Origin: an uncultured Clostridia bacterium
GTDB taxonomy: Bacteria; Bacillota; Clostridia; Christensenellales; UBA1242
Direction of reading: 5' to 3'
DNA length: 64,000 nt
Assembly: GCA_945928645.1 (NCBI GenBank)
Contig: CAMENR010000003.1
Coordinates: 40 to 64,039, forward strand
Position 1 is the first letter of the stretch, and each line of letters begins with the position of its first letter. Below, piece by piece: positions 16,475-50,243 of the stretch. The notes under the pieces were generated by a model, which was not told the DNA's origin, did no database searches, and saw only the letters and a list, made by a program, of their open reading frames with translations. The translations under genes were made by a program, and so were the position numbers.

Positions 16475-17062
16475 TTACAATTCTCGCCTGGCTTCTATTG
16501 CACGTGAAAGGGTTACTTCGTCTGCATATTCCAAGTCACTCCCCATAGAAATCCCCTGAGCAATTCGAGTAACTTTTATGCCCAATGGTTTTAGCAAGCG
16601 AGCAATATACATTGCTGTTGCTTCACCTTCCACATCTGGATTGGTAGCAACCACCACTTCGTCCACTCCACCGGCATTCACTCGACCTAGCAATTCCTTT
16701 ATGCGAATGTCCTCAGGCCCCTTATTTTCCAATGGGCTGATACAACCATGCAAAACATGATAAACGCAGTCAAAGTTTTTTACCTTTTCCATACTAGCAA
16801 TGTCTTTTGGCTCTTTTACCACACAGATAATTCCACTCTTGCGATTTTTACAAATAGAGCAAACTTCTTCTGTTGCAAAGCCACCACACACCTTGCAAAA
16901 CTTCACCTGCTCTTTGGCTACCATAATGCATTGTGCGAGATTGCTTGCTACATCATAATCCCCTCCCAGTATGGAGTAGGCATAGCGTTGTGCTGTCTTT
17001 CTGCCCACTCCTGGGAGGCACATAAAAGCCCCAATCAATTTCTCAATAACTTGTTCTTCCAT
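16475..17062 (-). CDS. recR: Recombination protein RecR
   Basis: KLIGAFMCLPGVGRKTAQRYAY (HhH), the CKVCGGF...CSIC zinc finger, and a Toprim block (IICVVKEPKDIASMEKV...). Confidence 0.93.
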   Translation of the reverse strand: MEEQVIEKLIGAFMCLPGVGRKTAQRYAYSILGGDYDVASNLAQCIMVAKEQVKFCKVCGGFATEEVCSICKNRKSGIICVVKEPKDIASMEKVKNFDCVYHVLHGCISPLENKGPEDIRIKELLGRVNAGGVDEVVVATNPDVEGEATAMYIARLLKPLGIKVTRIAQGISMGSDLEYADEVTLSRAIEARREL

Positions 17063-17149: not shown

Positions 17150-17700
17150 TTAAAAGGTTTTATCATATGTGCGAAGTGTTTTGAAATTCCTTGTTTTCCC
17201 TGGCGAAGAATAATTATTTGCAGTATAACTTGGCCAACTTGAAGATGAAGTTTTTCCTCCCCAATTTGCTAAGCTAGCCTTTACACTGTTATCCACTGCA
17301 TAATAATATTTCAGAACAGTTTTCCCAAATACTTTACTATCGCAAGTTCCTTCTGTTTGTGTATAATCAAAGAATCCTATTTTATTATTAGTAGTAGATT
17401 GCTCAACGCTACCATTGCAAACAATTGTGCTTATGTGATAATATTGAATATTTGTCCAAGTCTGTGTATACCACGTTTCCCACCAAAGGAAATTAGTATA
17501 CCTCCACTCAATACTATAATCATAAACGGTTCCATAACAAGCTCTATTGTAATAATATTTTAGATAATTATTTGGATAGATATTTACATTGCCTTTAATT
17601 TTCCCTTCCGATGCCAAGCCAGTTTTTAATGTATGATAACCAAACCATACCGCCCCAGCAATATATCCAGAATTTATAGTTAATGTTGAAAGAGTCCCTG
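17150..17700 (-). other. Giant protein C-terminal ~180-aa W/Y/N-rich, Cys-containing domain (distal tip); no cell-wall or membrane anchor
   Basis: ...YPNNYLKYYYNRACYGTVYDYSIEWRYTNFLWWETWYTQTWTNIQYYHISTIVCNGS...CDSKVFGKTVLKYYYAVDNSVKASLANWGG...KTF*. No LPXTG, SLH or hydrophobic tail. Boundaries are approximate. Confidence 0.6.
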
Positions 17701-20700: not shown

Positions 20701-23700
20701 TTGAGATTGTTATATCGTTTCCAAAAGTTACTTTCCCACCAGAAACATACAATGCTCCACCTGCTTCACTGGCTGTGTTGTCTGAAATACTTAAGTTATC
20801 GCCCAATTTCAATGTGCTTTCTTCAGTGATATATATTCCACCAGCATTGCTGGTTGCTGTGCTTTCTCCAGTAATATATATTCCACCACCATTGCTGGTT
20901 GCTGTGTTGTTGGAGATTTTTATATCTTTTTCAAATTCAACTTCACCACCACCAACATACAATGCGCCACCATTAGTTGCTGTGTTTTTAGAGATTGTTA
21001 ATCCTTTGCCCAATTTCAATGTGCCACCAGCAACATTCACTGCACCACCATTGGTTGCTGTATTGTCAGAGATTGTTACAGTTGATGGGATTGTGAGGTT
21101 GCCACTTGCAAGATAAATCGTAGAATCTGAGGTGTTATTTTTAATATTTACATTTTCGCCGAATGTTACTACGTTGTCTTCCGATCCCTCAGCTATATAA
21201 AGTATATAATTAGTTGATTTGTTGTTTGTTATAGATGTCGAAGTGATATTAACTGTCGAATAAACAACTTTTATCACTGCACTAGTAAATGTCGATTGCT
21301 CATCTTTATTTTCTGGATTGCTCCATTCGGTTATAGTGCAATCAGTTATGCTTACATTTGAGTTGTCGCTGAAGTCTAGTGCATTTGTTGCCGATATCTT
21401 GGACAATGTTATTCCACTTAACGCAACAGGGCTATTTGTTGCAGAAATAACTGAGCCTGAAGTAGTTTTTACATAAGTAATAGTGCTACTTGTAATCGAC
21501 AACCCTGTGCTTGTTGTGCCAGCACTACCTAATAGCGAACTTGCAGAAGAATTGCAATCTATAACTGTAAATAGGTTTTTGTTGCCAGAATCTATATTTT
21601 GTATCTTTATATTATTAGCCTCTAATTTTCCTCCTGAAATGGTTGCCACTGCAAGTTGAGATGGATCTCCTGCCTCATTACAGATATTAACTTTGCTAAG
21701 TTTTACATTTGCGCCTGTTGAAATATTGAAGATATTCTTTGTTGTGCCTGATATGTTAACATTGTTAAATTCAATTCCACCACTTTTTACATTGAGCCAA
21801 TCATAACTCATATCTAGTTCTATTGTGTAAGGCTCCACATTGACGTCAAACTCATAACCCACACCTTCTATTTTTGAGGCTATCTCAGCAGATTTTATTG
21901 TTATTGTATTTTTTACAGTAGTTATTTTTGAATCTGCTGATACATTATTTAGTAGATAAAGCTCTTGATTTACCGCTTTGCCTGTAGCCCCAGAAATTGC
22001 CGAGGTTATATCTTGATAGAATCTTTTGATTGTATTGTTGTAAATATTTCTTTCTGCAATGATAATAAACGCACCTGAGGAATCTGCCATTATTATAAAG
22101 CAATATTCTTCTCCATTAGGGTCCTCACCCTTAAAGATATCTTCCAGCAAGTTATATTTTGACAATTCTACATCTACATATCTTGCAACTTTCTGACCAT
22201 AATCTGTAGCCATATAATCACAAGAAACGGATATTTGTTTGTTGCCAGGTTCGTAAGGTTTGTTTATATTTATCAATGCCAAACTTTTCATTCCAGACTC
22301 TGTGACGGTCCTTTCAAGATAAAGAGTATTGTATATCTTTATATTCTCTGATAGATACTCTTCGTCACTATCTAGGGTAAGAGCAATGGTATGCCCTTGT
22401 TCGCTAAGATAAATTCCTGCACCCTTTTCTCCGGCTGTGTTGGCTAATGTAGAATCACTCTCTTCACCAACCTGCAACATAAATACTGTTATTTGTGATT
22501 TTGAATCCACAAATATTCCGCCACCTTTTCCTGTTGCACTGTTGGAGTAAAGTTTTAGATATTCTTCCCCTACACCATTGAAGGTTGCAATGGTGTCGCA
22601 GAGATATATACCTGCACCATTTTCACTGGCTGTGTTGGAAGATATTTGACCACCTTCAAAGTTAGCACTAATCTTTACAACTATGTCTATATCATTCTTC
22701 CTTTCTTTCTTTTGCCTTAGCCCATTGATATACACACCACCACCATTCTTTGCTGAGTTTTCAGAAACTACACCACCTGCAAATGTGAATTCCACATTCT
22801 TATAATTGTCAACATATGACACAATTCCATTTACTTCTTTTCTTTCAAATTCTTTTGCGTTGACAAATATACCACCACCATTCTCAGTTGCTATGTTGTT
22901 AGAAATTGCTATGTCTTGTGTAATTTCCACCTTGCAATCACTATCTAGATACAAACCACCACCATAGTCGGCTATGTTGTCTGTGATTGTTCCGCCAGAA
23001 ATGTTAACTGTTGAAGTTTTTGCATACAAACCACCACCAAAGCCTGCAACACCATTGGATATTGCACCACTTTCCATTGTAAATGAAGACTCTACTAAGT
23101 AAATTATTCCACCTAAGACGCCTTCATTTATATCCAAACTGCTTCTTCCCTCAACCCCAGAAAGCTCAGCTCCTGCAATATTAACTGTAGATAAGTTTGT
23201 CGCATTTACCACACTACCATTTGCGCTAGAGGTAGCATTGGTTATTATGAGGTTTGAAGTGAGTGTGATAGTAGAATCTTTGACATAGAACACACTTCCC
23301 TCTGAATCTGTGGAACAAATTATCCTTACATCTCCTCTTCCTTTTAAGTCATATACACTATTAAAATCTGCATCATAACCAAATGTTATATTCGATCCAC
23401 TATCCAATTGGAAGAGATTTTCCCTGATATTAGCATTAAATGTAACACCACCAGTTTTTGCAGAAATAACAACCCCCTTCAATCCACTAAATTCCACAGT
23501 TTTAGAAATTGCATAATTGCAATTATCTGCAAGTATAAGATACTTGTCGTAAGTATAAAGCGCCATAGACTGCATATCATTTATTGCCCCGTCTAGAGTA
23601 TCACTCTCGGCATATTGTTCTATGCCACTGCTGTTCTTTCCATATACTTGGAAAACTTGTGTCCTCAAAACAACTTCATTGCCAACAGCCTTTAGTCCAA

Positions 23701-44700: not shown

Positions 44701-47700
44701 CATATTCTTCAGGGATAGTTATCTCTCCATCTGGACAACTTAGGCTCTTAATATTTACTCCTTGTGGCAATCTATCTGCGCTAAATGTTATAGTAGACTG
44801 CCATATTGCATAAAGTGTAACAGTGTTGGAAGATGTTAGATATCTTTGAACATCTTCTCTGCAAAGGCTAAACTTATCTCCCGTTGCCAAAAATTCTGTG
44901 GTCCTTTCTCCACTGCCAGAACTTTCTCCATATGTTCCCCACCATGTATCAAAATTCTCACTTGCTTCTTTCAATTCTGTTGGATCTTGTTCAAACCACC
45001 AACCAACAAAGGTTGCTCCCTCACGAGCAAATCTTCTGTAAGGAATTTCAAAATTGGAAGCATAATCTTGCATAGTATTTGCAGTCTTTGTTACATCTTG
45101 TGAAAGGGTAACAAAAGCATTTTCATCTCCAACAAAAGAGCCACCATTTAGGTCAAATCTAATAGAAAATATTTCTTGCCAAACAATTGAAAGCACATCT
45201 TGGTTAGCATTAAACTCATCTACTGTCCCAGAGTATGAATATGTGTATGTGTCATTGCTACTGTCGTAAGCAACATTTCCGGTAAGTGTTTTATATTGGG
45301 CAAATCTATACCCCTCTCTAACATATCCACTTGCCGACATAATCTCTATGCCTGCTTTTACTTCTGCATAAGTAACTGGGCGCACTAAAGTATTTTGAAC
45401 GCCATAATCAAACCCATAACTAGACAAAGATTCGCTTGCTTTAGAGTTATCCCATGTTCCACCTTCCAACTCTACCTGAAGGTTGTATGTTTTTACAGCC
45501 CACAGAGCATTGATTGTTATCTCTCCATTGTTCAAGTCTTCTTCATCAAATATTCCACCATTGGCATTGCTTAGCAACACGATGTTTTTGTCAAACTCTA
45601 TTGAATATGTTTTATCTCCGTAAGAATAAACAAAAGACTTCAAAACCCAATAGGTTTTTTCTCCATTTTCAACCTTAGACACTTCTGTTTGATTGTAGGC
45701 AGTTGCGTCAAATGTGAATGAATCGCCATAGGCAACCACCATATCGCTGTGGGTGTTAGAGCCCATATTATCTACATATTTTACTACTATCTCTGCCCCT
45801 ACCCAAATAGCATAATAGGTAATATCACCTTCAAGAATAATTATCCCACTAACATTATCTGTGCCAGCAGAGTTAGTTGACCAACGGCTAAATGTTTTGT
45901 GTGTGCACGAAAAACCATATTCATCGCCTGTTTTTAGTGTAAACAAGTTGTTGCCTACTTGACTGATTGCAATTTTCCCGTTGCTATCTGCCGAAGAATG
46001 TTCTGCACCAACATATTCATACACTGTATCGCTGTCCGATCCAATATTTTCATACACAGCAACAGTATATTTCCACACAGGTGTAAGTTTGTAAACAAAT
46101 TCATATTCTGCTTTGACACTATCAATTAGTATTTCGTTAAATGAAATAGAATAATTCTCTACCAACTGAGGAACTTCTACAACAAAAACTCCACTAACGT
46201 CAAAATATGCATAATTATCTTTGCTTCTAAGATAGTCTAGTTGATGTAATGCTTTTTGTGGCAATGATGTTATTTGCACCAATCTATCTGTTGAATTGTA
46301 AGCCAAAGTCTTTTGGAACACTCTTACATTGTTGTCATCATAGACTTCCAATCTTACATCTCTCAACTTCCAATCTGCCACTGCAGAAATTGTCTTGCCG
46401 ATATTATCCTTTGTAAATGCATAAGATGTATTTGCTTCGTTAGCGACCAAGGTTTGCACCTTGCTTTCTCCCCCATTGCCAGCAACTCTCCATCCATCAA
46501 ACTGATAAATTTTCTTATCAGAATACAGGCTGATTTCTTCTTTTGTTGGCAAGGTTACTGTTGCTCCGTAAGTCAACTCTCTTGTTGCTGGCACACTACC
46601 TGCAATGTTATAGTTTTCACCAGACTTACTTCCGCTGAAATTAATAACAAACCACATTGCAAACAAATCTACATTTTCCTGAGAGCCAAACAAATCTATA
46701 TAATTTTGTTTTTCTTCTTTTGCCTCTACCCTAAGTCCAGAGCCATCTGCCATTGTGTTGAAAGCATTAAATCTAACATCATCACTAAATCCAGCCACTC
46801 CAGACATGATTTGTGACAACTCACTTCCATTTATTACGATATCTCCAGCCCTATCTGAATAAATCTTTGTTGAAGATTCCAACATTTTTGTCGCTTCTGC
46901 ATAAAGGGTTACAGATTTTTGTTTTACCCATTTTGCAATCAAAGTGATATCTTTGGTTGCGACAAAATTTTGTTGGTCATAGTTGTAGGTAACAGAGTCG
47001 CTTGTCCAACCGTCAAACAAATATCCTTCTTTTACTTGTCCTAGTTGAAGAGAAACCTCTTCACCATGTTTTGCAACAAGAGAAATAGTATTTTCGTTGC
47101 CTTCAACATTGCCACCAGCAAGGGCAAAAGTAACATTGTATGTATAAACTTGCCATTTTGCACATAATCCGCCAAAGTTGGAGTTTATAATGATATTTTG
47201 CAAATCAGAATCTTGATACAATTCGCCATTTCTATTGGTCCAACCTACAAAGTCAAAACCTTCTTTTGTCTTTTCAATTTTATCCAAAAGAATACTTTGC
47301 CCATTAGAATAGAAATTGAAACTAATACTTGTAATTGCACCATTTTTTGTTGTATTGCAAAGCATTGCCATTGAAGAACCATATTCTATTTGGATAACTT
47401 CTTCTTCCCAACTATCACTTACCTCGTTATAGTCCAATCCAATAGGGACTTGCGTCATTTTACCTTGCCATACAGCAACCAGGGTAACAACTCCCGTTCC
47501 AAGAGAAATGTTCCCAGCAGAAATTTCTATTTGCTCTCCTTGTGATATAATTTCGCCTGCAAATCTAAATCCATTAAGATTGTAGTTTGCTCTATACAAT
47601 ACACTTTCTGTTGGAAGATTAAACTTTGTGCCTTCTATCAGATTGGTTATAACAATTTGTCTGGAATCAGAATCAAAATACACATCAATCCTGCTCTCAT

Positions 47701-49858
47701 CATAATGGAACCCTTCTCCTTCCAAATTTTCAAAATTGAAATTAAAAGATTCTTTCAAGTCTTCTTCATTTATAGATGCAATATCCGAGCTAAGCCCCAC
47801 ATCAACAACACTTATCAATGTTTGTCTTGCAAATTTCTTGTAGTAAGCATAAAGAATAATTGCATTCTCTTCTGCAACATAACCAATGCTATCACTTCCA
47901 CCTACAAGCAAAGTATCCAAACCTTGCTCCAAAACTATTCCGTCTTGAGTCTTCAAACCAACCAAAATATAGCCATCTTGTTCTCTATTAAGGTTAGAAA
48001 CATCAGCCCATTCGCTAACTTTTTGCGAATAACCATTAGAAACACTACCCACTGTTGCTAGTTGTGTCCCGTTTATTCCACTGGTGTATATTTTTAGTTC
48101 TGTGGCACACTCTTCCCACACAGCGTAAAGGTCAATGCTTTGTTGATTTTTCAAAAATTCCTTTGATATAGACACTTTGCCATTGCCGGCAGAGCCAATA
48201 GATATATAATCCTTGCCAAACACAGGATTGGTTGGTTCTCCGTTTTCTACCATAGGATCAACAGATGTCCAACCTACCAAATCATGATTCTTAAGAGATT
48301 CCTTGTCTGTGATGGTTGACATACCAGCAAGTGCTGGATAAGTTGGCAAAACATATTCTGTGCCATACTTTCTTGCAACAACAGCGACCTCATCTTGATA
48401 TTCCACTACATCTTCACTTACTGGATGCGAAGCAAAATATTTGTTTTTGCTATTTTTGTTGGTATGTAGCCTTATTTCAACATTCTTTGCAGAGTAATTT
48501 GCCACCAAGCAACTATCTCCAGCAGGAGTATCAATCTGTGAATTCAAGGAAAGCCTATTCCCTTCGCCACCAAACGATACCAATTCGTAATAATTATGGA
48601 TAAACTGTATGTAATCCGCCTTAGAAATATCTGACGATGCTTGTTCAACCTGCCCTGTAGTTATATCTATTTTTGAAACCAGAGATAAGTCGTCATAATA
48701 TTTGCAATCCAAATCAGAAATTTTTTCTGAAACAGTTGAAAGGTCGATTTGTTCCCCCCAATATTTTGTTGTTATTTCAAACAAAAACAAGTTGGAACCA
48801 TCGCCATCAAAATCATTTTGAGCATAAAATTTTGTTGTAACATCACCAAGAGTGTAACCAGCATAAAGAGTAATGTTATCTTTCAAAACAAAAGGAGAGT
48901 AAGGTTGAGTCCTTTCTTCATCCAAATACCACCCTTCAAATTTTGCCAAAAGTTGAGTTGAGCCATCATATCTAACCGACACAACATCTTCCAACCCCTC
49001 GGCAACTACTACTTCTCCCTCTGTGTATGTTTTGGTCGCAACAGGTTCAAAAGGTCCTGTTACAAATTGAACATCAAATGTCTTCTTTTTGCCACCAAAC
49101 AATATTCCAAGCCCAAGACTAAGCAAAAGAACACCAGCAACGATGGAACTAATTATCACTGCCATTTTCTTTTTCTTAGGTCTTTTGCCATTTAGCAAAA
49201 CGCCTGCCTTTTCTTTGGCTTTATCTTCTACAGCACTTTCAACAGTTTTAGAATCAACACCGTTGCCTTGTCCATTCTGCTGAACACCCCCTTGTGCATT
49301 TTGGCTTCCCATTGGTTGCCCATTTTGAACCCCAAATCTATTTGCATTGATATTTTGCCCCTGCAAATTTTGTGGGACATTTGGCCTTTGCATTTGTCCT
49401 TGGCTAAATTGAGGAGGAATATTTTGCCTTTGTCCAGCACCCTGCATAATTTGTCCATTTGGCATCTGTGGTCTATTAGAATTATTTTGTCCCATTGGCA
49501 TTTGAGGTCTATTAGACACATTGCCATTTTGTCCCATTGGAGAATTTGGCATATTAGGGACCCCACCTCCCTGACCTGCAGGTCTTGGAGGAGTATTCTG
49601 CATATATGGGTTTTGCCCAACAGGCCTTGAAGGTTGCTGTCCATTCATTTGCGCTGGACGTTGCACAAAGTTAGGATTGCCATTTTGCACCCTTCCTTGT
49701 GGGACACTTCCATTGTTTGATACCACACGAGAAGTATTGCCTTGCCCATTAGGCGCAAAAGAGCCTGATGCATTGTTTGCACCATTTTGAACTCTCTTTT
49801 GACCATTTGGTCCAAAGCCATTATTTCCATTTCCAGCTCCAAATAAATTTTTATCCAT
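17150..49858 (-). CDS. Giant (10,902 aa) N-terminally membrane-anchored surface protein: Flg_new (Listeria-Bacteroides) repeat arrays + 7 PMP-repeat beta-helix modules + 1 BspA-type LRR domain
   Basis: AAGGAG-N7-ATG start and TAA stop, with no in-frame stop for 10,902 codons, while all other frames of the interval give only short ORFs. Recurrent ...G(Y/F)xFxGW...(L/F)YA(I/V)W units and GGA(I/V)Y / NGGG(I/V)Y repeats. See the sub-features below. Confidence 0.95.
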   Translation of the reverse strand: MDKNLFGAGNGNNGFGPNGQKRVQNGANNASGSFAPNGQGNTSRVVSNNGSVPQGRVQNGNPNFVQRPAQMNGQQPSRPVGQNPYMQNTPPRPAGQGGGVPNMPNSPMGQNGNVSNRPQMPMGQNNSNRPQMPNGQIMQGAGQRQNIPPQFSQGQMQRPNVPQNLQGQNINANRFGVQNGQPMGSQNAQGGVQQNGQGNGVDSKTVESAVEDKAKEKAGVLLNGKRPKKKKMAVIISSIVAGVLLLSLGLGILFGGKKKTFDVQFVTGPFEPVATKTYTEGEVVVAEGLEDVVSVRYDGSTQLLAKFEGWYLDEERTQPYSPFVLKDNITLYAGYTLGDVTTKFYAQNDFDGDGSNLFLFEITTKYWGEQIDLSTVSEKISDLDCKYYDDLSLVSKIDITTGQVEQASSDISKADYIQFIHNYYELVSFGGEGNRLSLNSQIDTPAGDSCLVANYSAKNVEIRLHTNKNSKNKYFASHPVSEDVVEYQDEVAVVARKYGTEYVLPTYPALAGMSTITDKESLKNHDLVGWTSVDPMVENGEPTNPVFGKDYISIGSAGNGKVSISKEFLKNQQSIDLYAVWEECATELKIYTSGINGTQLATVGSVSNGYSQKVSEWADVSNLNREQDGYILVGLKTQDGIVLEQGLDTLLVGGSDSIGYVAEENAIILYAYYKKFARQTLISVVDVGLSSDIASINEEDLKESFNFNFENLEGEGFHYDESRIDVYFDSDSRQIVITNLIEGTKFNLPTESVLYRANYNLNGFRFAGEIISQGEQIEISAGNISLGTGVVTLVAVWQGKMTQVPIGLDYNEVSDSWEEEVIQIEYGSSMAMLCNTTKNGAITSISFNFYSNGQSILLDKIEKTKEGFDFVGWTNRNGELYQDSDLQNIIINSNFGGLCAKWQVYTYNVTFALAGGNVEGNENTISLVAKHGEEVSLQLGQVKEGYLFDGWTSDSVTYNYDQQNFVATKDITLIAKWVKQKSVTLYAEATKMLESSTKIYSDRAGDIVINGSELSQIMSGVAGFSDDVRFNAFNTMADGSGLRVEAKEEKQNYIDLFGSQENVDLFAMWFVINFSGSKSGENYNIAGSVPATRELTYGATVTLPTKEEISLYSDKKIYQFDGWRVAGNGGESKVQTLVANEANTSYAFTKDNIGKTISAVADWKLRDVRLEVYDDNNVRVFQKTLAYNSTDRLVQITSLPQKALHQLDYLRSKDNYAYFDVSGVFVVEVPQLVENYSISFNEILIDSVKAEYEFVYKLTPVWKYTVAVYENIGSDSDTVYEYVGAEHSSADSNGKIAISQVGNNLFTLKTGDEYGFSCTHKTFSRWSTNSAGTDNVSGIIILEGDITYYAIWVGAEIVVKYVDNMGSNTHSDMVVAYGDSFTFDATAYNQTEVSKVENGEKTYWVLKSFVYSYGDKTYSIEFDKNIVLLSNANGGIFDEEDLNNGEITINALWAVKTYNLQVELEGGTWDNSKASESLSSYGFDYGVQNTLVRPVTYAEVKAGIEIMSASGYVREGYRFAQYKTLTGNVAYDSSNDTYTYSYSGTVDEFNANQDVLSIVWQEIFSIRFDLNGGSFVGDENAFVTLSQDVTKTANTMQDYASNFEIPYRRFAREGATFVGWWFEQDPTELKEASENFDTWWGTYGESSGSGERTTEFLATGDKFSLCREDVQRYLTSSNTVTLYAIWQSTITFSADRLPQGVNIKSLSCPDGEITIPEEYASITSNWKPKMQFYCGEIVDFSQYSFNLIESNFAFDNWTNPLGKPYTVVQIAEDITLLGTWYSTNFTIEVRNHLGEKFASNITGMQVTAGQNLTYDQICNFFNNATSSLSEVNKDGEPYLFGYEFKGWVAGAVGDTGYDGSYEIITVGGAYVVPKIATNLCAVFAPAEVKVLLHKNNNSAIGSTPQTLSVVPKYGETVEITANPYNLAGYYINGWMIAPAGEAVLTSLQMLKQNGVVEQVNKSGKREYVINLYAHWELNVATITINLGEGGVFYNNGVNGTELPLYVENTDANPTNIQRYEQVGNLLKVYVYVGKSFVLPNGNYISRPGYELKDYKMGTEIKPAGSTEMCQTAEPLRYIANYNEVIEIRVYNGIDDSYQSVAFVTYGNNVLFEKEQGAEGYRYKVGGGYVDFEREHYSLNGYKSLSSNALFSYANDGVSVALTGEFFNVDRSAKVAYLYCDWLGDEVTFDFYMSRNKYNIGEKESSDIVNFGQRVDLSKYFYTFSDDEEFLGYRFDHFVLDNAEGEMTFDKNNSIFDMSSFGYSNTYVFYGVWKPTDFAVKVRFNDTTFSGQFNGENYENVSEIVFRVEYGSDVNLSEISLSSLIHKDDIGATNPVMKAIYYQTNVMLAENEKGTYNLKQNQFRMPSKDIELSIVWQSREVKIVVDPTGSLISEGESIRYTTNLEGFDSANMKVNELGRLVVSGYKLGDSVVLREYPKLEITGKHYNYYLLINYAGKSGTTPENYIYLSTEGYIISRDTEVGSINFDNLYVEDSSGGHFEIWISLLWENNNYVVNYQSGKEALPSTDNGYTVNASGNISGYFGSQTMRCYETSMLADQLSLDGWTHIGWSTEKLVANQVRGEGGNVYEFQYEEIKDESGNAIIDPDTNQPAIIVKVPQGVFNFTFEQDGKVDLWPVWVQNDVKLAFTDSFGVISGEKTVKYDSEVTFGSFFEESAFQSYFDGTYIYEFDGFAHNSRVISKDYSVKISKTNNLFVSADFDEEQITFVSTWKEKSYSLKLELLGGEYLGDKTSDFEYNYARESETDSYTFNITFDTLYSSLKAGLDISTKNIDTTKILKDGKTLAGWSMSKGGDINLVPIENSGDMVSYVLANAEDIQSTSQFVLYAVYNDVLVVIDGCGGKVKDSFVEGEYNSLTWTTNEDRTQLITWTTEFKQINIPAEVFANFERDNYSAINSAVVDSLDRHFEVEWQGDEVLLVFDTKGGSVNRDINFNNFVSNVGLGETEYNSKIAVKVRYGQKILASDLLLVTATSSETFGGWENENGTIIYSQNDFEINQAGTFVVYAIWSQAKAYFVLNGGRYGPGEGSLEIEARPLVSNGDSYQVALPSAKSETTNADLGPTKVGYTFIGWTSQYKDYADFVANSGSTDNLYCPSYSGTSDITVTELANENITFYAIWRPHKFVFTFYSKEITGTQSYGDPVTMEVAYGEALQFPQSIEGWNRANYTHVGYQIRPSVGSGLTGVIEYDLGYNFVILEGEEYDLEKIADIRDGATVSVYAIWQTNIVTVKINLGKENARYIGSDSKFKLVKEDNVAYLLNDTDYHYGENFALPSFDDLYCDDYLVSSYKYNTTTYTRPTSIPLNKDVVEVLVNWGKACAYIKDFFSTGYHKYYASIDMAIRDAMAGTSKNSASHATSADGAVVVLQNNERQQSLSAKVEIPAGQKLTIMLSDSDMKVVRARAFNESLFDIKGTLVISGGDLTKLTIGEESTNTTNKQVLLSVAGGTLEINNNVLFTAIVNTVGGYGSVISAKNSTIILDNVTFENCFNTSRTVEQLYGGAIYAENSTTTINYANFDNCYVSGVNGFGGAIAVVGGEFNLSGGAFVENEVNCSGNAYGGAVYATGAEINIVCVDRGLEWTSNQAKIGGAIALQNCMDVNNKIAGTGALSVGFNQNRATQGNGGALYIERSELKLNYCSFVANMAQSGNGGAVFVGDNSLLNAVYSKFISGNTAQNGGAVAVVGYIKDNAHNLASCYFESNIAQEAGGGLFISGNEVLVTVSKTTFSKNSSQIGGGVAVIDLARIYVNNDISFVPADELEWVSISENSANKGAGIYIAGSPSSASIIRYAYISSNIANDDQGESFGGGVCVNTGLAKLENSAIYDNYATYGGALYVEGKCELDNVSTSAYRWIYEGGVLKTIIGYAVKISDNGKMVNYYEVDQFGVSTGNPILLQVESQSGNYVDMDGNIVTSSTENYEKYYYIVSNESSDDYSYHYLSNGQEFNMDDVLPANIPAISKKAGNTAVVGGALYVATSGECIWKNSDIEGNVADDYATIYNLGSTTVQGIRAKENIKSSTSSSNQGSTIFNGNSFTILGENYFGSSEMFFVNYINEEGAPSTFNNLIVKARLISGSNYEYFTNSGEQIMIAFEKDTNDITAQLGKRVVAYVEYSSEKWASLEEVFVACDSINYLFAKEEYPSTNIVLYFQDYTLTLCDLSQESFGESEFKFKYNANVAESGMADLIATRTPSKFDYEFVGWVYYDKINSARLEIDGLLDIYQEMQNPGGEYSDMFKFALHSNGDSEEATSDWFRVENAKFLAGNIYLYAVWKPVKYTVSYKYDTLYGGRLISGYTIGGVPASNLRISFDLVDGEYGKITLPSLSEVNKLEAVQIVSLSEVNYNGALIDSVVYDGKTFVRSDSAVNRLNFDEKTGLYSFEDNGQKYYVEPSRKTAFVRFDEATNGKISAISDEEDSYFYPQSILVGEQEVDVVESNGQYYFDFGGKTWLVRAVNRPDGFRFKNFSFNGNSYGAGEVFDMTTTNLATVVSRNIVFDVVFEAIEKDVKIESNWDAPKKDTTDNVIINKYVGETITLPSATESIFYDGEEVLFARPGYSLVGFSFDKTSTEPEYLPKDIVEVTMKKDFILYAIWKESCCYVENGAQFNGKNVNIYYTTLEKAIDDITSGKVKAFDGRYKVVVTADCQVNNTIQISKNVVIVSNGAYTISAGEEMSGNLFVVNGGVTLTMGNIASDGVVTTLSVKGKTSGMNSLVKVSTSGNFVANEGLRLYDNYALAGGGIYVEGNATLANFDVKNLSAENGGVLYVATYGKVIINGTKFASSGSVFANNYGGAIYADNKSTVDISYAKFEGTQAKNGGAIFVAKEAKLTIVETEFSNCSAQENGGAVYYAGTVELSNKNTFTSNSAKYYGGAVYGEESVVVSSADITFTSNIATIGGAVYAKGNLSVYNGIFTSNSAIGQGTMLKAQGGAISAGAKVTVTGGTFTSNFANNYGGAVAISKGGEIFGGQFTGNYTLSPSGAMTYGGAVYVDGSDGVSIYGDAVFSENGYYIPSRVVNISTTYGGAIAVCGSATLQLGVGISGNMAKNGGAVAVCENASLSLMKTEDSNPLEFSSNKVANAGGALYIGDNATFDNSKKPFVATNNTASFGGGIYISSTVSTNLYYSSVVGNNAGGSDDIYNGILTLGADVYVGKTGTANLAGITVGSESLTGYPYSVYIDNGGLLNVASSNLYGSVLVKGNEANKGLNLLSGVSSGKFLAKVYLLKRARIYVESSLYNIEKILIECVNDDQGSTPTDDDSLKALIENWIVAQFIDISSRKASMELFALDNVDGYCLFGEENYLKIGKIADKIFIDTNGKLIEYNGEEIKGVFDISLTDKKDFSFLNDILGKAFGYSLQDSFIVSNENSDYNGMSFSSQNKNLPVEELTLVAQWTEVQFGINILYQKNNSSGGLSTTIFNKSTVQVSTTVELDATDLINNPLKYHHFSAWELAYAVEDNTEGSVKLGKTSYIRTGVKLIPDPMGKVTFSIYNSPLNFDIITEYGQTVGDTEYSWFDAYSAICRGHQNDSGSYLDKYSIFFVACWDPNLVTIKVYEGEGSANESQSSSFEIAERFEEDENGTVVAGWKYVLKQGDILFKLQEMTKDFSKYNNAITDVYVGRNTSGTTYPVYWSYNIEEATTLEFECIWKEVVAYADRKAVTGGETTRVYYYSIEGEDGVFNSDGVANCEEGDELVFVNANINIYKTYKFNGKVSISSVYKTTFVRNETFAGNMFEFAGDITLSNIIIDGNKLQIRANSSAVYVKNGTLNIGEEVYIQNNYAENGAGVLADGKLILNGAILSENEAGNFGGAIVARGGLEIYSATISGNSALYGGAIYIGSNTCVISGGEISDNTATNGGGIWFGGGVLDITNCRLSGNEASTYGGGLYLALDCGRATIGQGVEIINNSAQKGGGVYYDGDSDLGVSEGNVIIDGAMINNNTATYGGGVCIGDTAGTASKQIIVLLSGEISDNTATYGGGVYVVRGTLNIKGGTIAQNESNEMFIGSNAKDIFGKVIISNGTINIGLQGSLVVVSGYGLLDFAGSSTFSSIIKLEGSNSRFAISKPFSNDNLIRVQIDEANYPKNITESVEIATYDNQAVDGVKNFDVVDDKINDYRIKALEGKIYIVQGYFTLTLDPAGGKISGNGSYIVENTLWHKEVKYRTNILSMFIDNSISCVKENYDFVCWTYVDENGEVQDVTTLTTMPRHDEVLRAKYTEEYRLLTIELGGATFEVNDEFKDLWNVTTVSGKADKASIKVSVNNQEYAGRVLSSAKDALSKTYYNFAGFECSQLNTNLSLSAENVWKTSDNTPFVMPSDNVVLRPIWQAKEYTVKYVSNLVEGSTTITEGSQTRQFHFDSYEWLEEVFVADGWNVVQWKDERGNLYAVDQKVINLPKDILTGFDPDNIQENIEITLEAVWQANNYQVELVMNIAGRQDVEVINAVFDQEFTLVSSFAVSGKHIVSWNTTSTLDGESYANGAVVKNLASSGKITLYAEWEDDNWTAIFHNATGGVARQVEYNYSSKAYAPTLEELGLQKQAHFAGWAYENSPETSKKVADGGEVENVLGENVVHLYPIWQNYVLTVTNAIANESFYITADDMGKTNISAQVINENFAFAGFTPVAVTDTVSGGNRVVLSDSTEIALSADKEVFVEWKAKEITVNIVDGNTLLWTGKVVASDIPATNTTITLPTSSELSELCGKIAYGYTFAKQNVTKDFAMGEDFSISSETLQNVMNLADNGEQKINIYPIFVDSYNLVYNLNNDSHNVLLATENGFDSNGTKVMPTALSEKGELLFADFEIADANYTDSNSRYAKFLGWSTDQNATTPEWSADGLREAQFAGEVTLYAVWKDWTNPFLLEVSNGYVTGLSSLGVSRITGDIIVPSHTLIVNDGVVEVGDVIVGIGPFAQDYANIKTIDLSLSSVENISSLAFEKLSNLTAVYNIPAITNVEYGAFACSSIQTVTFAQNSNYTLDNAGNIYLAIEVKTLLHTYFAKDSYVSVDNVSGILPLAFAGSVAQIVEVNDGIRQYEGCFAMMDNLQTLVLKTVGDNAVDGSGLGNNFTYKDNIFEPANSYNVTLLGNSNTVPAHAFENCSKLKYVVFENEIKEVGEASFRNCAQFTIMGKTGELVFENLEVVGKNAFENCKALPQKISLSSATRIGGESFKSTNIEYVALSKDVVSLGSENNAFVQSNLSSARVYSKIAFEAVVNQTKITPRGTGVSAQGMIITNITFYNQLKSDSNSERYLSYNIVVEDMIDVYAQNGNLLGQYSSIAMALEDCVGGETIVINDDLVIFETITINKPVNIVSGKEEGITLQRAENLSTWVFDIEGKDVIFGGESPYAKGNIIVAGTENDSNTSLFCISENGILTLSGLTITGNKGANGGAISIFEGQLNLVNSEITSCYAVGTDGKGGAIYAIGTAVVSVENSKIIDCKATEGGAIYVHEEAKVVITGSELTSNEATNGGAIYVESNMDNTYYVEIYNSTLKENTAQNGGAVYVNCGLVEVDQGSLFVSNTASERGGAIYIGSKVEGGANRSGQVDIYNGYIGQGEDSSLANSAKYGGGIFVGERGIVRMLKSEYGSAIVSGNLAEYGAGLYYASNNINTNTSWLGYGQITLSTASIRGGGVYVESGRLDISSEFSINGNSAVEGGGLYICANSIVYLQQGAVVSNNSATNGAGVYLCGTLKLYDASITSNTAELGGGVLIDGGKLFATHSLSSIAGNTATINGGGVYMGQLNATADGEVELSGGATIDANTANENGGGLYAMNGKITLRDGNISNNVSHGQGGGVYATGNNLSFEIYDDIERKGLENAGSTIANNSAVVGGGIYVGKVLYMYGGKVFGNTATTSEGKGGAIFISSGAIARIFGGEISGNGANYTEGDNVVSNEDVGGIYVQGAKKLNTATGIEEAVESNSLYISNSAKILDRVFLSTKSILNITDMFVAEEHSKIYLVLEQVFGDNEQIKVATFAQEKFASAGKLDSDIIVFTRRGKDIYAMAGIIRSLKADENGKFKMYASINDAIEQAPSNETAYFGLFNRQVVNYNNTIYVEENKDIVIVDCRENADGAVVLRDGSYQDFMFVIRGTLELTYLSQYDIDSKGLKLTDSDSCKPFIIEGNKDTLVNTSMFYIDGGTLKLTNGTTVQKTKANLSSTDNVFSVSGLNVNELKCGGAIWLKNGSVILDNSTIIDSQATLNGGAIYQENGTIEISNNSTIQNCSATNGLGGAIYSVGGSIVIDENSIISQNNAKKGGAICVENGGQLKASGVVFEGNSSIEDGGALDLNSTPKADKTNNYEIIGCTFSNNSAKNGGAICVENGKLSIHSNTSFQNNNATMYGGAIAVTKEAEVESRGITFQSNYAENGGACYFDSNGEVTISSTIFIGNGIRSYESALYGGAIYVASGNINLNDGCVISENKAINGGGVYISAGTLTVNDCSFRDNQSTQGGAILSCGSLNIVGKNKFESNKAVMIGSNNAVGGGAIAVREGNTTININSLNNTYSTFSENSSDAVGGAIYVVGGNVSLVLGELRENSASAKGDGGAIYTQGGYTTLYGTVIEGNTLVSGEKNGAGLSVAGGVLELKDYNNEKSIVLNNGINATITLSNESESEVSGPEGLIVKSGLVLSGEIDSLDDGILLLNNKSFINVKDDPSGDVNSGFRSKTNKEEFRGKRFFKRISLFLEEGVFAEGDKILQFVRSEYVDSVDGKGYINYFNLDLNSGFGLKAVGNEVVLRTQVFQVYGKNSSGIEQYAESDTLDGAINDMQSMALYTYDKYLILADNCNYAISKTVEFSGLKGVVISAKTGGVTFNANIRENLFQLDSGSNITFGYDADFNSVYDLKGRGDVRIICSTDSEGSVFYVKDSTITLTSNLIITNATSSANGSVVNATNLSTVNIAGAELSGVEGRSSLDINEGVLGGIIYLVESSFTMESGAISNGVAGFGGGLYAKTSTVNISGGTITDNIADYGGGLYLDSDCKVEITQDIAISNNIATENGGGIFVNAKEFERKEVNGIVSYVDNYKNVEFTFAGGVVSENSAKNGGGVYINGLRQKKERKNDIDIVVKISANFEGGQISSNTASENGAGIYLCDTIATFNGVGEEYLKLYSNSATGKGGGIFVDSKSQITVFMLQVGEESDSTLANTAGEKGAGIYLSEQGHTIALTLDSDEEYLSENIKIYNTLYLERTVTESGMKSLALININKPYEPGNKQISVSCDYMATDYGQKVARYVDVELSKYNLLEDIFKGEDPNGEEYCFIIMADSSGAFIIIAERNIYNNTIKRFYQDITSAISGATGKAVNQELYLLNNVSADSKITTVKNTITIKSAEIASKIEGVGYEFDVNVEPYTIELDMSYDWLNVKSGGIEFNNVNISGTTKNIFNISTGANVKLSKVNICNEAGDPSQLAVATISGGKLEANNIKIQNIDSGNKNLFTVIDCNSSASSLLGSAGTTSTGLSITSSTITYVKTTSGSVISATNSPVALSGITLSKISATNALDFSDNSNVSITDCTITEWSNPENKDEQSTFTSAVIKVVYSTVNITSTSITNNKSTNYILYIAEGSEDNVVTFGENVNIKNNTSDSTIYLASGNLTIPSTVTISDNTATNGGAVNVAGGTLKLGKGLTISKNTATNGGALYVGGGEVEFEKDIKISNNTATSNGGGIYITGESTATSNAGGIYITEESTLKLGDNLSISDNTASEAGGALYVSGGKVTFGNDITISSNHSIKGSGIALTENGELNFAGNNTNINSNTGIEGKESLGGGLYIGSSKVYSGDTPLILDSKINISSNTATNGGGIYITGESALKLSGGYVGDNTATNGGGVCITENASFTLSSGSIRNNTATTKGGGVFVEVNGFFTMEDGSIGGTSEKGNGLSAFKDSFGNTATDGGGIYANLSFSSSKCNVALTGGVVSFNEANNGGGIYLVGADSDNAMTIDTVIQNNLANSGGGVYIGSNKVVLSYIELCYNDATVNGGGIYVNGSSTLTINNGVIGYKAYAGLGIEGTLFDGKPTAPTVTLTSKKGFSYKAYVLAEDNSCLVKNENRLSANYAENGGGIYIAGGGILNINGGLFAYNCATDGGVIYAKGKVVISENSESAVNYGTQEATSNNVNSFGDAIVFRNNYATNGGAIYTSEDSILNIEYTGDESSYQLNGPNLEGKGVVFVSNSAENGGAVYNNSGNATITKVLFGKRLTGVVNKGISNIATGNGGAIYNNGTLTINGGTVFENRATNGGGIYVNGGILTLTDVTIQQNSATSGGGIYANGGVSNISATIEGNIATNGGGIYVNGGTVNFNSGEIKRHIDNKITNGGGVYVGGGTFNLAGGVIGDSKKESVATAENNSNKAQNGGGVYVGSGTFTMKESGTIAFNYATNDGGGVYVASGTTFYILGGTIKYNGAGNVGGGMYIGGTVTDQKDGESSTKYSIANNKAGSGGGVYLNGTWSISTCSNDRAISGNTATSNGGGMYINASDKTINSYFTGNTANNGGAIYSAVKFTFTGEAVENTATTNGGAICNDGAGTSISGTIYGNTADSNGGGVYSTTSLTISGTISSNTATNGDGGGVYCAGGTISGTVGENNKAKNGGGVYSAGGLTVSGTVYKNIATSNGGGVYVDGKFTASGGTVSENTASGKGGGVYMSGGDSRKITLSGGAIIASNTGAHADNGEAICKDFGYDVKYNGDNGRTNGIYVNGNLGTLKLSDKTNKLCANGEGDYSSNNFAIVVTGTLSTLTINSGYIAGAVWFGYHTLKTGLASEGKIKGNVNIYPNNYLKYYYNRACYGTVYDYSIEWRYTNFLWWETWYTQTWTNIQYYHISTIVCNGSVEQSTTNNKIGFFDYTQTEGTCDSKVFGKTVLKYYYAVDNSVKASLANWGGKTSSSSWPSYTANNYSSPGKTRNFKTLRTYDKTF
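17700..22040 (-). repeat. Beta-helix module 7 (largest)
   Basis: I count about 35 N(T/S)A..NGGG(I/V)Y-type repeats. The cap is FYQDITSAISGATGKAVNQELYLLNN (~22000). A first part with few GG motifs (SGGKLEANNIKIQN...) is followed by dense ATNGGGIY / AxNGGGVY repeats down to ~17900. Confidence 0.7.
20817..20906 (-). repeat. 2 x 45-nt tandem duplication inside module 7 (TATSNGGGIYITGES / TATSNAGGIYITEES)
   Basis: 20817-20861 and 20862-20906 align with about 5 mismatches and are in frame (15 aa each). Confidence 0.8.
22050..23630 (-). repeat. Beta-helix module 6
   Basis: Cap IEQYAESDTLDGAINDMQSMALYTYDKYLILADN (~23600). Repeats include GFGGGLYA, DYGGGLYL, ENGGGIFV, KNGGGVYI, ENGAGIYL, GKGGGIFV. 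Confidence 0.65.
23640..25830 (-). repeat. Beta-helix module 5
   Basis: Cap FKMYASINDAIEQAPSNE (~25800). Repeats include CGGAIWL, LNGGAIYQ, GLGGAIYS, KKGGAICV, EDGGALDL, KNGGAICV, MYGGAIAV, ENGGACYF, LYGGAIYV, INGGGVYI, TQGGAILS. Confidence 0.7.
25850..28090 (-). repeat. Beta-helix module 4
   Basis: Cap IDVYAQNGNLLGQYSSIAMALEDCVGGETIVIND (~28060). Repeats include ANGGAISI, GKGGAIYA, TEGGAIYV, TNGGAIYV, QNGGAVYV, ERGGAIYI, KYGGGIFV, EYGAGLYY, IRGGGVYV, VEGGGLYI, TNGAGVYL, ELGGGVLI, INGGGVYM, ENGGGLYA, GQGGGVYA, VVGGGIYV, GKGGAIFI. Confidence 0.7.
28200..29290 (-). repeat. BspA-type leucine-rich repeat (LRR_5-like) domain, single occurrence
   Basis: ...IKTIDLSLSSVENISSLAFEKLSNLTAVYNIPAITNVEYGAFACSSIQTVTF..., VPAHAFENCSKLKYVVFENEIKEVGEASFRNCAQFTIMG..., LEVVGKNAFENCKALPQKISLSSATRIGGESFKSTNIEYVAL. 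This is the (A/S)F.(N/G)C..L..(I/V) pattern of PF13306. Confidence 0.7.
29290..31455 (-). repeat. Flg_new repeat stretch F3 (~720 aa)
   Basis: NYDFVCWTY, YYNFAGFEC, VVQWKDERGNLY, GKHIVSWNTTSTLDGESY, AHFAGWAYENSP, NFAFAGFTPV, AKFLGWSTDQNA, each followed by ...LYP(I)W / LYAVW / LEAVW. Confidence 0.65.
31455..32870 (-). repeat. Beta-helix module 3 (shortest)
   Basis: Cap TRVYYYSIEGEDGVFNSDG...ELVFVNANINIY. Repeats include ENGAGVLA, NFGGAIVA, LYGGAIYI, TNGGGIWF, TYGGGLYL, QKGGGVYY, TYGGGVCI, TYGGGVYV. The tail ends ...DYRIKALEGKIYIVQGY (~31455). Confidence 0.65.
33900..36010 (-). repeat. Beta-helix module 2
   Basis: Cap NVNIYYTTLEKAIDDITSGKVKAFDGRYKVVVTAD (~35990). Repeats include LAGGGIYV, ENGGVLYV, NYGGAIYA, KNGGAIFV, ENGGAVYY, YYGGAVYG, TIGGAVYA, AQGGAISA, NYGGAVAI, TYGGAVYV, TYGGAIAV, KNGGAVAV, NAGGALYI, SFGGGIYI. 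Confidence 0.7.
37350..39850 (-). repeat. Beta-helix module 1
   Basis: Cap GYHKYYASIDMAIRDAMAGTSKN (~39820). Repeats include LYGGAIYA, GFGGAIAV, AYGGAVYA, KIGGAIAL, GNGGALYI, GNGGAVFV, QNGGAVAV, EAGGGLFI, QIGGGVAV, SFGGGVCV, TYGGALYV, VVGGALYV, with FxxN-type spacers (FENC, FDNC, FVEN, FVAN, FESN, FSKN). Confidence 0.7.
39850..49080 (-). repeat. Membrane-proximal array of Listeria-Bacteroides (Flg_new, PF09479-like) repeat domains, ~3,070 aa
   Basis: At least ~25 clear units of ~70-90 aa, each ending in (I/L/F)(Y/F)A(I/V/H)W. Examples: FEGWYLDEE...LYAGY, LVGWTSVDP...LYAVW, FDFVGWTNRNGELY...CAKW, EGYLFDGWTSDS...LIAKW, YQFDGWRVAG, ATFVGWWFEQ...LYAIW, GYEFKGWVAG, VGYTFIGWTSQY...FYAIW. Confidence 0.75.
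49094..49165 (-). other. Single TM helix / signal anchor of the giant protein (aa ~232-255)
   Basis: KRPKKKKMAVIISSIVAGVLLLSLGLGILFGGKKK: the positive-inside rule places the N-terminus in the cytoplasm. No AxA-type cleavage site is obvious. Confidence 0.75.
49169..49858 (-). other. N-terminal ~230-aa Q/N/G/P/M-rich low-complexity (predicted disordered, cytoplasmic) region
   Basis: MDKNLFGAGNGNNGFGPNGQ...SNRPQMPMGQNNSNRPQMPNGQIMQGAGQRQNIPPQFSQGQMQRPNVPQNLQGQN.... It includes a 36-nt (12-aa) imperfect tandem repeat at 49451-49516. Confidence 0.8.
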
Positions 49859-50104
49859 AATTTACTCCTTAGTATTATTTCACTACTTCGCAAAAATATT
49901 TCGAATAACAGAGTTTTTGTAGAACAAGTTGATTACATAAGAAAAAGAAAAGTTTTACAGCATTCCAAGTTAAGCCCTTTCCAACTTTTGCTATTATTCT
50001 ATACAGCAATTCACACAGCGAGATTTTTATAAAAAAAATCAATTAAAATCAGTCATCTATGATAATCGCCAATTCTCAATAAACAAGCCACTTCTACGTT
50101 ATTT

Positions 50105-50134
50105 ATTATATCATACAACACCACTATATAACAA
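50105..50134 (-). promoter_or_regulatory. Candidate promoter for the giant gene
   Basis: Minus strand reads TTGTTA(50129-50134)-N18-TGaTATAAT(50105-50113). It would give a ~240-nt 5' UTR. Other weaker candidates exist. Confidence 0.3.
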
Positions 50135-50243
50135 ACAAATATAACAAATTTTTACAATTTTTTTAATGTATTTTTACCTCATTTTACTTGACATTTTTCA
50201 AGAATTTTTTTTACATTTTTTGTGCTCTCTTTTGCGCAAAAAG

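Follow-up and report, generated by a model that had tools for sequence, protein, structure and literature searches.

What does a single bacterial reading frame of 32.7 kb encode, and is it a gene at all? The question is raised by the window analysed here, a stretch of 64,000 nucleotides (nt) from an uncultured Clostridia bacterium of the order Christensenellales (UBA1242; GenBank assembly GCA_945928645.1, contig CAMENR010000003.1, positions 40 to 64,039 of the forward strand), in which one open reading frame (ORF), hereafter the giant gene, dwarfs all others. The ORF is one real gene, under purifying selection. It is the largest of the region, its length is held at ~10,900-10,980 amino acids (aa) and its 3' end comes in discrete recombining classes. 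From the order and the types of the encoded domains we consider it probable that the giant protein is a fibrillar adhesin or tether, anchored in the type II orientation, whose exchangeable tip sets the specificity of binding.

The complete ORF (17150..49858, minus strand) counts 10,902 codons and one stop, starts with ATG and occupies 51% of the window. It specifies a protein of 10,902 aa and 1.174 MDa with an isoelectric point (pI) of 4.56. A first-pass annotation, made from the sequence alone, had proposed such a single frame free of in-frame stops, and frame analysis confirms it. The canonical start in that annotation also stands: the Shine-Dalgarno sequence AAGGAG (49865..49870, minus strand), read directly, lies 6 nt 5' of the ATG, a trivial difference from the spacing of seven first given. 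The start reads TAA ATT ATG and is not extendable because of the in-frame TAA two codons upstream. The five other frames of the same 32.7 kb contain 353-913 stops and lack long ORFs as had been claimed, their longest open stretch being 187 aa rather than ~170 aa. The sense off-frame with the fewest stops has them at 6.6% of its codons; at that frequency, 10,902 stop-free codons would arise with a chance of ~1e-321. The G+C content of the gene is 0.38, the flanks are alike, and the sequence has no Ns. The DNA repeats that the gene contains encode a N-x-A-x-x-GGG-I-Y motif, measure no more than 40-60 nt and share 60-87% identity; only three tandem arrays are found, all tiny, and repeats within the protein share at most ~45% identity. 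Since DNA repeats are this short and protein repeats this diverged, repeat collapse or a chimeric join is unlikely.

Other strains carry the same gene. In the ENA scaffold L001, from a different strain, a gene of 10,881 aa is called at the same locus upstream of an identical RecR, with 95.7% nucleotide identity to the window in the gene and 97% in the flank. Colinear 3' fragments of 642-3,305 aa with the frame intact are present in six more assemblies (88-99% nucleotide identity). Among strain pairs the ratio of non-synonymous to synonymous substitution rates (dN/dS) is 0.09-0.47 and all indels keep the frame, bearing out the purifying selection that had been deduced from the open frame. Neither frameshifts, nor missing Pfam support, nor orthologues split into several genes were found, three observations named beforehand as ones that would speak against a single gene.

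The family extends to other species. A scan of the GTDB species-representative genomes, with an alignment of the anchor-proximal region as query, yielded 13 loci, all in metagenome-assembled genomes (MAGs) of Christensenellales. All 13 are open to the end of the fetched DNA, that is over at least 3,700-4,000 aa where ~10 kb was fetched, and share with the window a head, a lysine cluster, one transmembrane (TM) helix, the motif FVTGPF and a frame of at least 3,700 aa. The MAG ERP122455_co2_49 has two paralogous members on different contigs (L185 and L188), each open over more than 3,700 aa. A second scan, using a conserved non-PMP segment of the C-terminal part, gave N- and C-terminal matches on the same contig in two species. 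The orthologue in UBA7862 spans 32,865 nt, implying 10,954 aa (open over 3,952 aa on the N side and 5,713 aa on the C side, with 3.9 kb not fetched), and that of CAYLWT010000001 spans 32,937 nt, implying 10,978 aa (3,927 aa and 5,715 aa, with 4.0 kb not fetched). Both spans are divisible by three. Both genes are syntenic, between tex and recR; recR is 90% identical in the two species and lies ~60-85 nt after the giant stop. Regions sampled in the two orthologues have ~45-77% protein identity to the window, and the Flg_new-like domains and PMP clusters described below occupy almost superimposable positions in the three species. Identity between UBA7862 and the window is 95% for Tex, 91% for the DUF1015 protein, 76% for PGM and 65% for the giant N-terminus; for the INTA.CYC.065 MAG the respective values are 81%, 66%, 49% and 26%. 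The giant protein is thus faster-evolving than these three neighbours while its length and domain order are kept.

Word-indexed homologue searches returned 1-3 proteins each. On the 5' side, assemblies from short reads come to an end within the low-complexity head, ~150 codons into the gene, as contigs L171 (6441-6890) and L172 (4643-5092) do. Such truncation accounts for the near-absence of the giant protein from protein catalogues and for the few homologue matches. A RecR-based pattern search of GTDB gave matches that were all at most 66% identical, none of them beside a giant gene, a null result explained by limited patterns since 90%-identical RecR proteins do adjoin the orthologues.

The protein begins with a low-complexity head (aa 1-231; 49166..49858, minus strand) composed at 57% of N, G, Q and P and ending in KRPKKKK. 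Its length among homologues varies from ~50 to ~330 aa. The head had been described as disordered and cytoplasmic; the low complexity is observed, and its composition and the predicted topology make the other two properties likely. The single TM helix (aa 232-256; 49091..49165, minus strand) is followed by the conserved start of the ectodomain, ...VxFVTGPF.... That there is one such helix, as first reported, agrees with the hydropathy profile, where aa 234-252 is the sole strongly hydrophobic segment (Kyte-Doolittle value of 2.52; next best 1.6). The variable head, the lysine cluster, the one TM helix and ...VxFVTGPF... are kept in homologues down to 26-33% identity, a layout suggesting that the helix is a type II signal-anchor with the N-terminus inside and the C-terminus outside. 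A sortase (LPXTG) substrate of the MSCRAMM type was considered and rejected: no LPXTG-like motif was found near the C-terminus of the giant protein and it has no C-terminal hydrophobic segment for a sortase-type anchor, its lone hydrophobic segment being the N-terminal one.

The membrane-proximal stalk (aa 257-3244; 40127..49090, minus strand) is a string of 21 domains resembling the Flg_new or internalin B (InlB) B-repeat, found with a hidden Markov model (HMM), together with degenerate copies. The Pfam family Flg_new (PF09479) scores 84.4 bits on the N-terminal tile of the protein (cut-off 27), where one stretch passes, and NCBIfam TIGR02543 (List_Bact_rpt) scores 32.5 (cut-off 20.95). A local iterative HMM was seeded on the Pfam hit, with relaxed seeding because strict inclusion stalled at three domains. 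It detects 29 domains, 21 in aa 476-3244, two in aa 4159-4608 and six in aa 6145-6856, and none in ten shuffled controls. The alignment of the 29 has the classic YG...Y-F-GW...N...LYA-W consensus, and the profile retrieves from PDB only the B-repeat of Internalin B (2y5p), at full length with E = 6e-8. The dozens of Flg_new domains first announced are thus present at the profile level but not by Pfam taken individually, where four of the 29 domains reach Flg_new and three reach Flg_new_2 on their own. More degenerate copies are recognised by eye, for instance at aa 257-340 and aa 5330-5650. Beyond the stalk, on the same strand, lie the two domains of aa 4159-4608 (36035..37384), which carry long insertions, a segment without Pfam match at aa 5301-5654 (32897..33958) in which the degenerate signatures LVAQW, FVACW and FECIW are seen by eye, and the six domains of the third group, at aa 6145-6856 (29291..31426).

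Seven β-helix modules of the chlamydial polymorphic membrane protein (PMP) type share the distal part with these domains. Motifs of the form G[GA][AGV][ILVMFC] number 129 against ~16 expected; 123 of them fall in seven clusters, with a modal spacing of 24-28 aa that equals one solenoid turn. All on the minus strand, module 1 comprises aa 3336-4160 (37379..39853) with a cap YASIDMAIRD, 16 GGAx motifs and a post-helix segment, module 2 aa 4610-5300 (33959..36031), module 3 aa 5655-6140 (31439..32896), module 4 aa 7258-8004 (25847..28087), module 5 aa 8005-8740 (23639..25846), module 6 aa 8741-9285 (22004..23638) and the long distal module 7 aa 9286-10755 (17594..22003), with 39 GGAx motifs. The seven modules of the first-pass annotation are upheld: all eight module segments of the window match Pfam Chlam_PMP (PF02415) individually, the best with 93.8 bits against a cut-off of 20.6, and NCBIfam POMP_repeat (TIGR01376) agrees with this assignment. 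A cap-like sequence Y-x-S-I-x-x-A-I opens most modules, detected by regular expression in modules 1, 4 and 5 and by eye, in degenerate form, elsewhere. Module 5 was modelled with AlphaFold2 (AF2), the paralogous modules serving as alignment. The model (predicted template modelling score 0.75) shows a regular three-stranded β-solenoid core at aa ~8175-8605, with a predicted local distance difference test (pLDDT) of 84-97, the cap and the post-helix segment being of low confidence. The predicted BspA-type leucine-rich repeat (LRR) domain is likewise present between the third and fourth modules (aa 6857-7257; 28088..29290, minus strand), where LRR_5 (PF13306) reaches 83 bits (cut-off 27.7) in three stretches at aa ~6900-7200. 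In a sequence search of all tiles against PDB this block alone found matches, its weak relatives being 4fs7 (E = 5e-9) and TpLRR 6mlx. As a rough estimate, the β-helices total ~59 nm (123 turns of 0.48 nm); adding ~30-35 small domains of a few nm each, the fibre would have a contour of ~150-200 nm.

The end of the protein is set off by a conserved junction (aa 10756-10769; 17552..17593, minus strand) of sequence GNVNIYPNNYLKYY and consensus GNVN[IV][YF]PxxYLxYY, which in all orthologues precedes a variable tip of 133-156 aa. In the window the tip is a 133-aa orphan domain of class A (aa 10770-10902; 17153..17551, minus strand). The aromatic-rich tip announced earlier is found as described, W, Y and F making up 21% of it against 10.6% of the whole giant protein. 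The last ~400 aa are basic (pI 8.6) and the remaining ectodomain has a pI of ~4.5. Pfam gave no significant match for the four tip classes, with just two chance-level hits of class D far below cut-off, and PDB gave no significant relative for the tips searched. An exhaustive HMMER search of the tip against 1.8 billion representatives returned three matches: a fragment of the same allele, and two relatives. The C-terminus of P0005 is one of these relatives, P0005 being a 2,724-aa fragment colinear with the last quarter of the giant protein. Scanning the tip pattern gave no match in GTDB representatives and only two loci in the metagenome collection. By these searches the tip appears close to an orphan.

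Four tip classes are distinguished. Class A is that of the window and eight other assemblies. Class B is found in L003 and L007, which belong to the window species with an identical RecR, and in L195, from another species; class C in L196, P0005 and P0006; class D in UBA7862 and the independent metagenome contig L198. Classes A to C have in common an aromatic/Cys scaffold with invariant Trp, Tyr and Cys, and no similarity to them is detectable in class D. The classes do not track the species phylogeny, A and B both occurring inside one species. This decoupling was assessed by comparing the identity of the tips with that of the preceding 600 aa. The window and L003 have 79% identity upstream and 30% in the tip, L003 and L195 49% and 64%, L196 and P0005 53% and 61%, and the window and L009 81% and 99%. 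Nucleotide identity between the window and L003 is 94-100% at aa 10,501-10,600 and 89% at aa 10,601-10,650, then falls sharply to 33-59% from aa ~10,650 to the stop. An abrupt drop of this kind is what recombination leaves behind when it replaces a terminal cassette. Neither the exchangeable tip nor the conserved length was among the points raised in the first-pass annotation.

Variation is not confined to the tip. Among strains the ratio of non-synonymous to synonymous polymorphism (pN/pS) is 0.01-0.14 at aa 7500-9250 and 0.46-0.68 in the remainder of the chain, beyond ~aa 9250; module 7 is the fastest-evolving region and its nucleotide identity profiles show block-wise mosaics. L001 diverges from the window at aa ~9651-9700 and 10301-10450, and L008 at aa ~9751-9950 and 10451-10600, both in a background of 95-100% identity. 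Strain-specific blocks of low identity indicate frequent recombination within the distal β-helix as well as at the tip.

These observations can be assembled into a model of the adhesin or tether. The N-terminal signal-anchor helix would insert the protein into the membrane, with the head left on the cytoplasmic side and ~10,650 residues brought outside. The string of ~3,000 residues of InlB B-repeat domains would lift the remainder through and beyond the wall. In the distal two-thirds, where the seven PMP helices alternate with Flg_new domains and one LRR block, the helices and the LRR block may act as rigid rods and offer generic surfaces for interaction with proteins or glycans. The small aromatic-rich domain at the end, set in a basic region, would determine the binding target of the fibre. 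The tip and parts of the last β-helix would recombine between strains and species, at or just upstream of the junction, changing specificity or antigenicity on a constant scaffold of ~150-200 nm. Glycans of the host or the diet are candidate ligands, as are microbial partners within flocs. The adhesive function is suggested by the domain types, and the role of the tip as specificity determinant appears plausible from its position and exchange.

Several observations weigh against this model. β-helices also occur in glycan-degrading enzymes, and the weak structural matches of module 5 include PL6 lyases and tailspikes. The AF2 model of the class A tip, built on a three-sequence alignment, has a pLDDT of 35 and is unusable, and neither Pfam nor PDB gave a relative of the tip; calling the tip 'lectin-like' follows from the aromatic-rich composition and the basic terminal region, and from those alone. 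Three lysines come after the TM helix and slightly weaken the positive-inside argument. Finally, the full length is supported by two contigs and by coordinate arithmetic, short-read assemblies breaking in the head, and the implied lengths of the orthologues span a middle of ~4 kb that was not fetched in either species.

A bolder extension holds that the giant gene encodes a membrane-anchored, length-calibrated fibre of ~11,000 residues whose specificity cassettes are exchanged horizontally and come without immunity genes, used by the cell to choose its physical partners. We regard it as tentative and rather doubtful. If true, it would be a cellular, Gram-positive counterpart of the swapping of tail-fibre tips, with tip class defining partner specificity within a species; the partners could be cells of its own kin, hydrogen-consuming methanogens within flocs, or particular glycans from host or diet.

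The rival that survives best is a passive surface coat or spacer, in which a brush of acidic fibres, or a glycocalyx-like layer, would fend off phages, immune effectors or other cells, and distal variation would reflect antigenic or phage-receptor escape instead of ligand specificity. The uniformly acidic ectodomain (pI ~4.5) fits such a role, as do the length and architecture strictly kept while the sequence drifts and the exposed end that evolves fastest, with recombination mosaics. The building blocks, however, are InlB B-repeat, PMP and BspA LRR, typical of binding proteins, and the discrete tip with its invariant Trp/Tyr/Cys scaffold in classes A-C resembles a binding module. Moreover, strains that differ by 11-22% in the adjoining 600 aa have class A tips that are 99-100% conserved, which argues for function over pure escape. 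We consider a coat unlikely.

The β-helices could instead make the fibre a tethered glycan-degrading machine, some modules being active lyases or hydrolases, like tailspike depolymerases or PL6 enzymes, that harvest or remodel host, dietary or microbial glycans. When the module 5 model was searched against PDB with Foldseek, no match reached E <= 1e-3; the best had E = 4e-3 and TM-scores did not exceed 0.33. The weak matches are all right-handed parallel β-helices, too generic to discriminate between functions. PL6 alginate lyases, GH110 and tailspike depolymerases are among them, and carbohydrate-active domains exist in the giant proteins of Omnitrophota; the same non-significant list, though, holds rhombotarget A and the adhesins Antigen 43 (Ag43), pertactin and TibA, and the modules match Chlam_PMP, an adhesin-type repeat. 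On the C-terminal tile Pfam Beta_helix (PF13229) barely passes, with 26.1 bits for a cut-off of 25.9, and no lyase or hydrolase family matches. As already noted in the first reading of the sequence, which saw no enzymatic motif, neither a catalytic domain nor a further Pfam family was found in any tile or in 20 unassigned segments scanned separately. This makes an enzymatic fibre improbable.

Exchange of C-terminal cassettes behind a conserved junction is also the hallmark of carriers like CdiA, WapA and Rhs and of phage tail-fibre tips, among which such cassettes spread horizontally as in the giant gene. The tip could accordingly be the variable toxin of a contact-dependent polymorphic delivery system: the domains of 133-156 aa after the junction come in at least four classes, one unrelated to the others, exchanged among strains and species. 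Toxin carriers come with an immunity gene and tail fibres with a chaperone gene, and the giant locus has neither downstream. In the six loci checked (window, L003, L007, L194, L196 and L198), covering all four tip classes, recR lies ~60-90 nt past the giant stop, which leaves no room for an immunity gene. Furthermore, no tip class matches a toxin in Pfam or PDB, classes A to C are built on one aromatic/Cys scaffold, and no processing or translocation domain was detected in the giant protein. Toxin delivery is on these grounds very improbable. The flanks of the giant gene are housekeeping genes, not the phage context of tail fibres.

The metagenomic origin of the contig, the frequent breaks of short-read assemblies at the gene start and the scarcity of database homologues might suggest an artefact of assembly, separate genes fused into one ORF or a pseudogene in decay. 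This rival is effectively refuted by the absence of stops over 10,902 codons against 6-8% in the off-frames, the absence of long DNA repeats, the full-length gene called in a second strain, the two orthologous spans divisible by three and open over ~29 of the 33 kb, a dN/dS below 0.5 and the same colinear domain order in three species.

The proposed adhesin or tether shares features with several known systems and differs from each. The megadalton RTX adhesins (MpIBP of 1.5 MDa, SiiE, LapA, FrhA) have an anchor-extender layout with distal ligand-binding domains (PMC5550230, PMC7493085). Like the giant protein they exceed 1 MDa and are held at the cell by their N-terminus, followed by a long extender of small β domains, and like the proposed fibre they concentrate ligand-binding modules at the distal C-terminal end. 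They are, however, exported by type I secretion systems, carry RTX repeats and the secretion signal at the C-terminus, are retained in the outer membrane by a dedicated module and have BIg extenders stiffened by Ca2+. The giant protein has a predicted signal-anchor for the cytoplasmic membrane, is built of Flg_new and PMP blocks and comes from a Firmicutes host. No RTX/HemolysinCabind or Big domain was found when all tiles were scanned with Pfam, and an RTX adhesin was rejected. Flg_new adhesin-like proteins of Firmicutes and gut methanogens have been linked to gut adaptation (PMC7883539). Their repeat family (Listeria-Bacteroides or InlB B-repeat, 2y5p) is that of the giant stalk, but the described proteins are 10-100 times smaller. 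InlB itself has one B-repeat and a wall anchor of GW modules, while most copies in the giant protein are too divergent for Pfam.

Chlamydial Pmp proteins, Ag43 (7ko9, 4kh3) and pertactin share with the giant protein the right-handed parallel β-helix with GGA[ILV]/FxxN motifs, which serves in them for adhesion or self-association. Pmp and Ag43 are type V autotransporters with a C-terminal β-barrel, in contrast with the seven concatenated helices and the N-terminal anchor found here. An autotransporter was rejected, since no β-barrel was found, no tile matches Autotransporter or PMP_M in Pfam, the chain ends in the orphan tip of 133 aa and its anchor is the N-terminal TM helix. LRR_5 (PF13306) is shared with the BspA/TpLRR surface proteins and forms in the giant protein a minor module, ~3% of the chain.

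Among large surface proteins of Gram-positive bacteria, Giant1-5 of Apilactobacillus kunkeei have 3,000-8,000 aa, a cleaved Sec signal peptide, no TM helix and a wall-binding SH3b-like/DUF5776 C-terminal end (PMC12863079), and a Mobiluncus adhesin has 7,651 aa (PMC10619420). These proteins and Ebh/Embp are, like the giant protein, repetitive, elongated, extracellular and fast-evolving. Ebh/Embp and the Mobiluncus adhesin have LPXTG or other C-terminal anchors and other repeat folds; the polarity of the giant protein is the opposite. DUF5776 or SH3 domains gave no match in it, and a head of 231 aa precedes its TM helix. The size of the gene had been called very rare in bacteria, but size alone is not unprecedented: predicted proteins of more than 10,000 and more than 30,000 aa are reported in Firmicutes (bioRxiv 10.1101/2023.11.21.568195). 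The giants of Omnitrophota from the same work have many TM helices, SecA-DEAD, peptidase and carbohydrate-active domains. They resemble the giant protein in being metagenome-derived, longer than 10,000 aa, largely extracellular by prediction and equipped with attachment-type domains; unlike them, the giant protein has one TM helix and no SecA match in the Pfam scan of its tiles. By the features tested it falls outside the RTX, autotransporter and LPXTG proteins and the A. kunkeei and Omnitrophota giants.

Predicted proteins of more than 10,000 aa were thus already known, and all major building blocks come from adhesin-type families. In agreement with the suggestion that the organisation was undescribed, the combination is absent from the literature and family databases searched, namely an N-anchored mosaic of Flg_new, PMP and LRR with a variable head, the FVTGPF start and a conserved length of ~10.9-11.0 thousand residues, and likewise the orphan tip and its cassette exchange without an immunity gene. 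Few bacterial proteins above 1 MDa have been validated, and the locus adds a well-supported case to them. Christensenellales are widespread and poorly characterised gut bacteria, for which it provides a conserved candidate for physical contact. Cultured Christensenella flocculate and methanogens colonise their flocs, the adhesin responsible not being identified (PMC7002349). Linking the giant protein to this flocculation is speculation, the lineage studied here being a different, uncultured branch. Two ideas lend themselves to testing, a relation of tip class to binding partner or host and one of fibre length to the geometry of the envelope or of flocs.

The genomic setting is that of a gut Clostridia chromosome. 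The Tex protein shares 95% identity with its counterpart in the MAG 'Christensenella sp. UBA7862', the close relatives are all gut MAGs of Christensenellales/Clostridia, and contigs with an identical RecR come mostly from pig-gut metagenomes. Downstream of the giant gene, recR (16475..17062, minus strand) starts 88 nt past the stop and is followed by genes for a DedA/VTT protein, DUF1846, SDR, a thioesterase, a Wzy-like protein, a GT2-TPR protein and AsnRS. The upstream flank has a TetR regulator, small membrane proteins, tex, DUF1015 and PGM. A tRNA-Lys is also present in the window, and the first 1,134 nt of a 23S rRNA gene (1-1139, minus strand; Rfam, 1006 bits) are cut by its edge.

The giant gene is preceded by a leader of 1.85 kb (49859-51716) with 27% GC. 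It holds a divergent ORF of 128 aa (MNNKINYMDF..., ~50927-51316, plus strand), also called in L171, L172 and L174, for which the precomputed annotation of these three contigs has no Pfam hit. A terminator-like hairpin lies at 51705-51723, and scans of the AT-rich leader with Rfam and for promoters and terminators gave nothing specific to the giant gene. The TetR regulator lies between tex and the giant gene (51717-53346, minus strand), together with a membrane protein of 223 aa and a membrane ORF of 125 aa. The related species L011 and L016 lack all three at the corresponding place. The block is an insert specific to the lineage and may have a role in regulating the giant gene.

A protein of 1,418 aa, unrelated to the giant one, is encoded further away at 3526-7782 (minus strand) and kept in L001 and L005. 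It starts with 3-4 TM helices; the long rest of the chain is charged and looks helical, and neither Pfam nor PDB gave a match. One strain, L006 (GCA_019973095.1), has an insert at positions 4733-6383 of its own locus, between the DUF1846 gene and the zinc-ribbon gene, made of an extra gene for a 207-aa protein with a Tubulin/FtsZ-family domain (PF00091) and two small ORFs. Double-zinc-ribbon (DZR) proteins are encoded three times in the window, at 13118-13651, 59112-60179 and 60181-61248, all on the plus strand, one of them fused to SPFH/Band-7.

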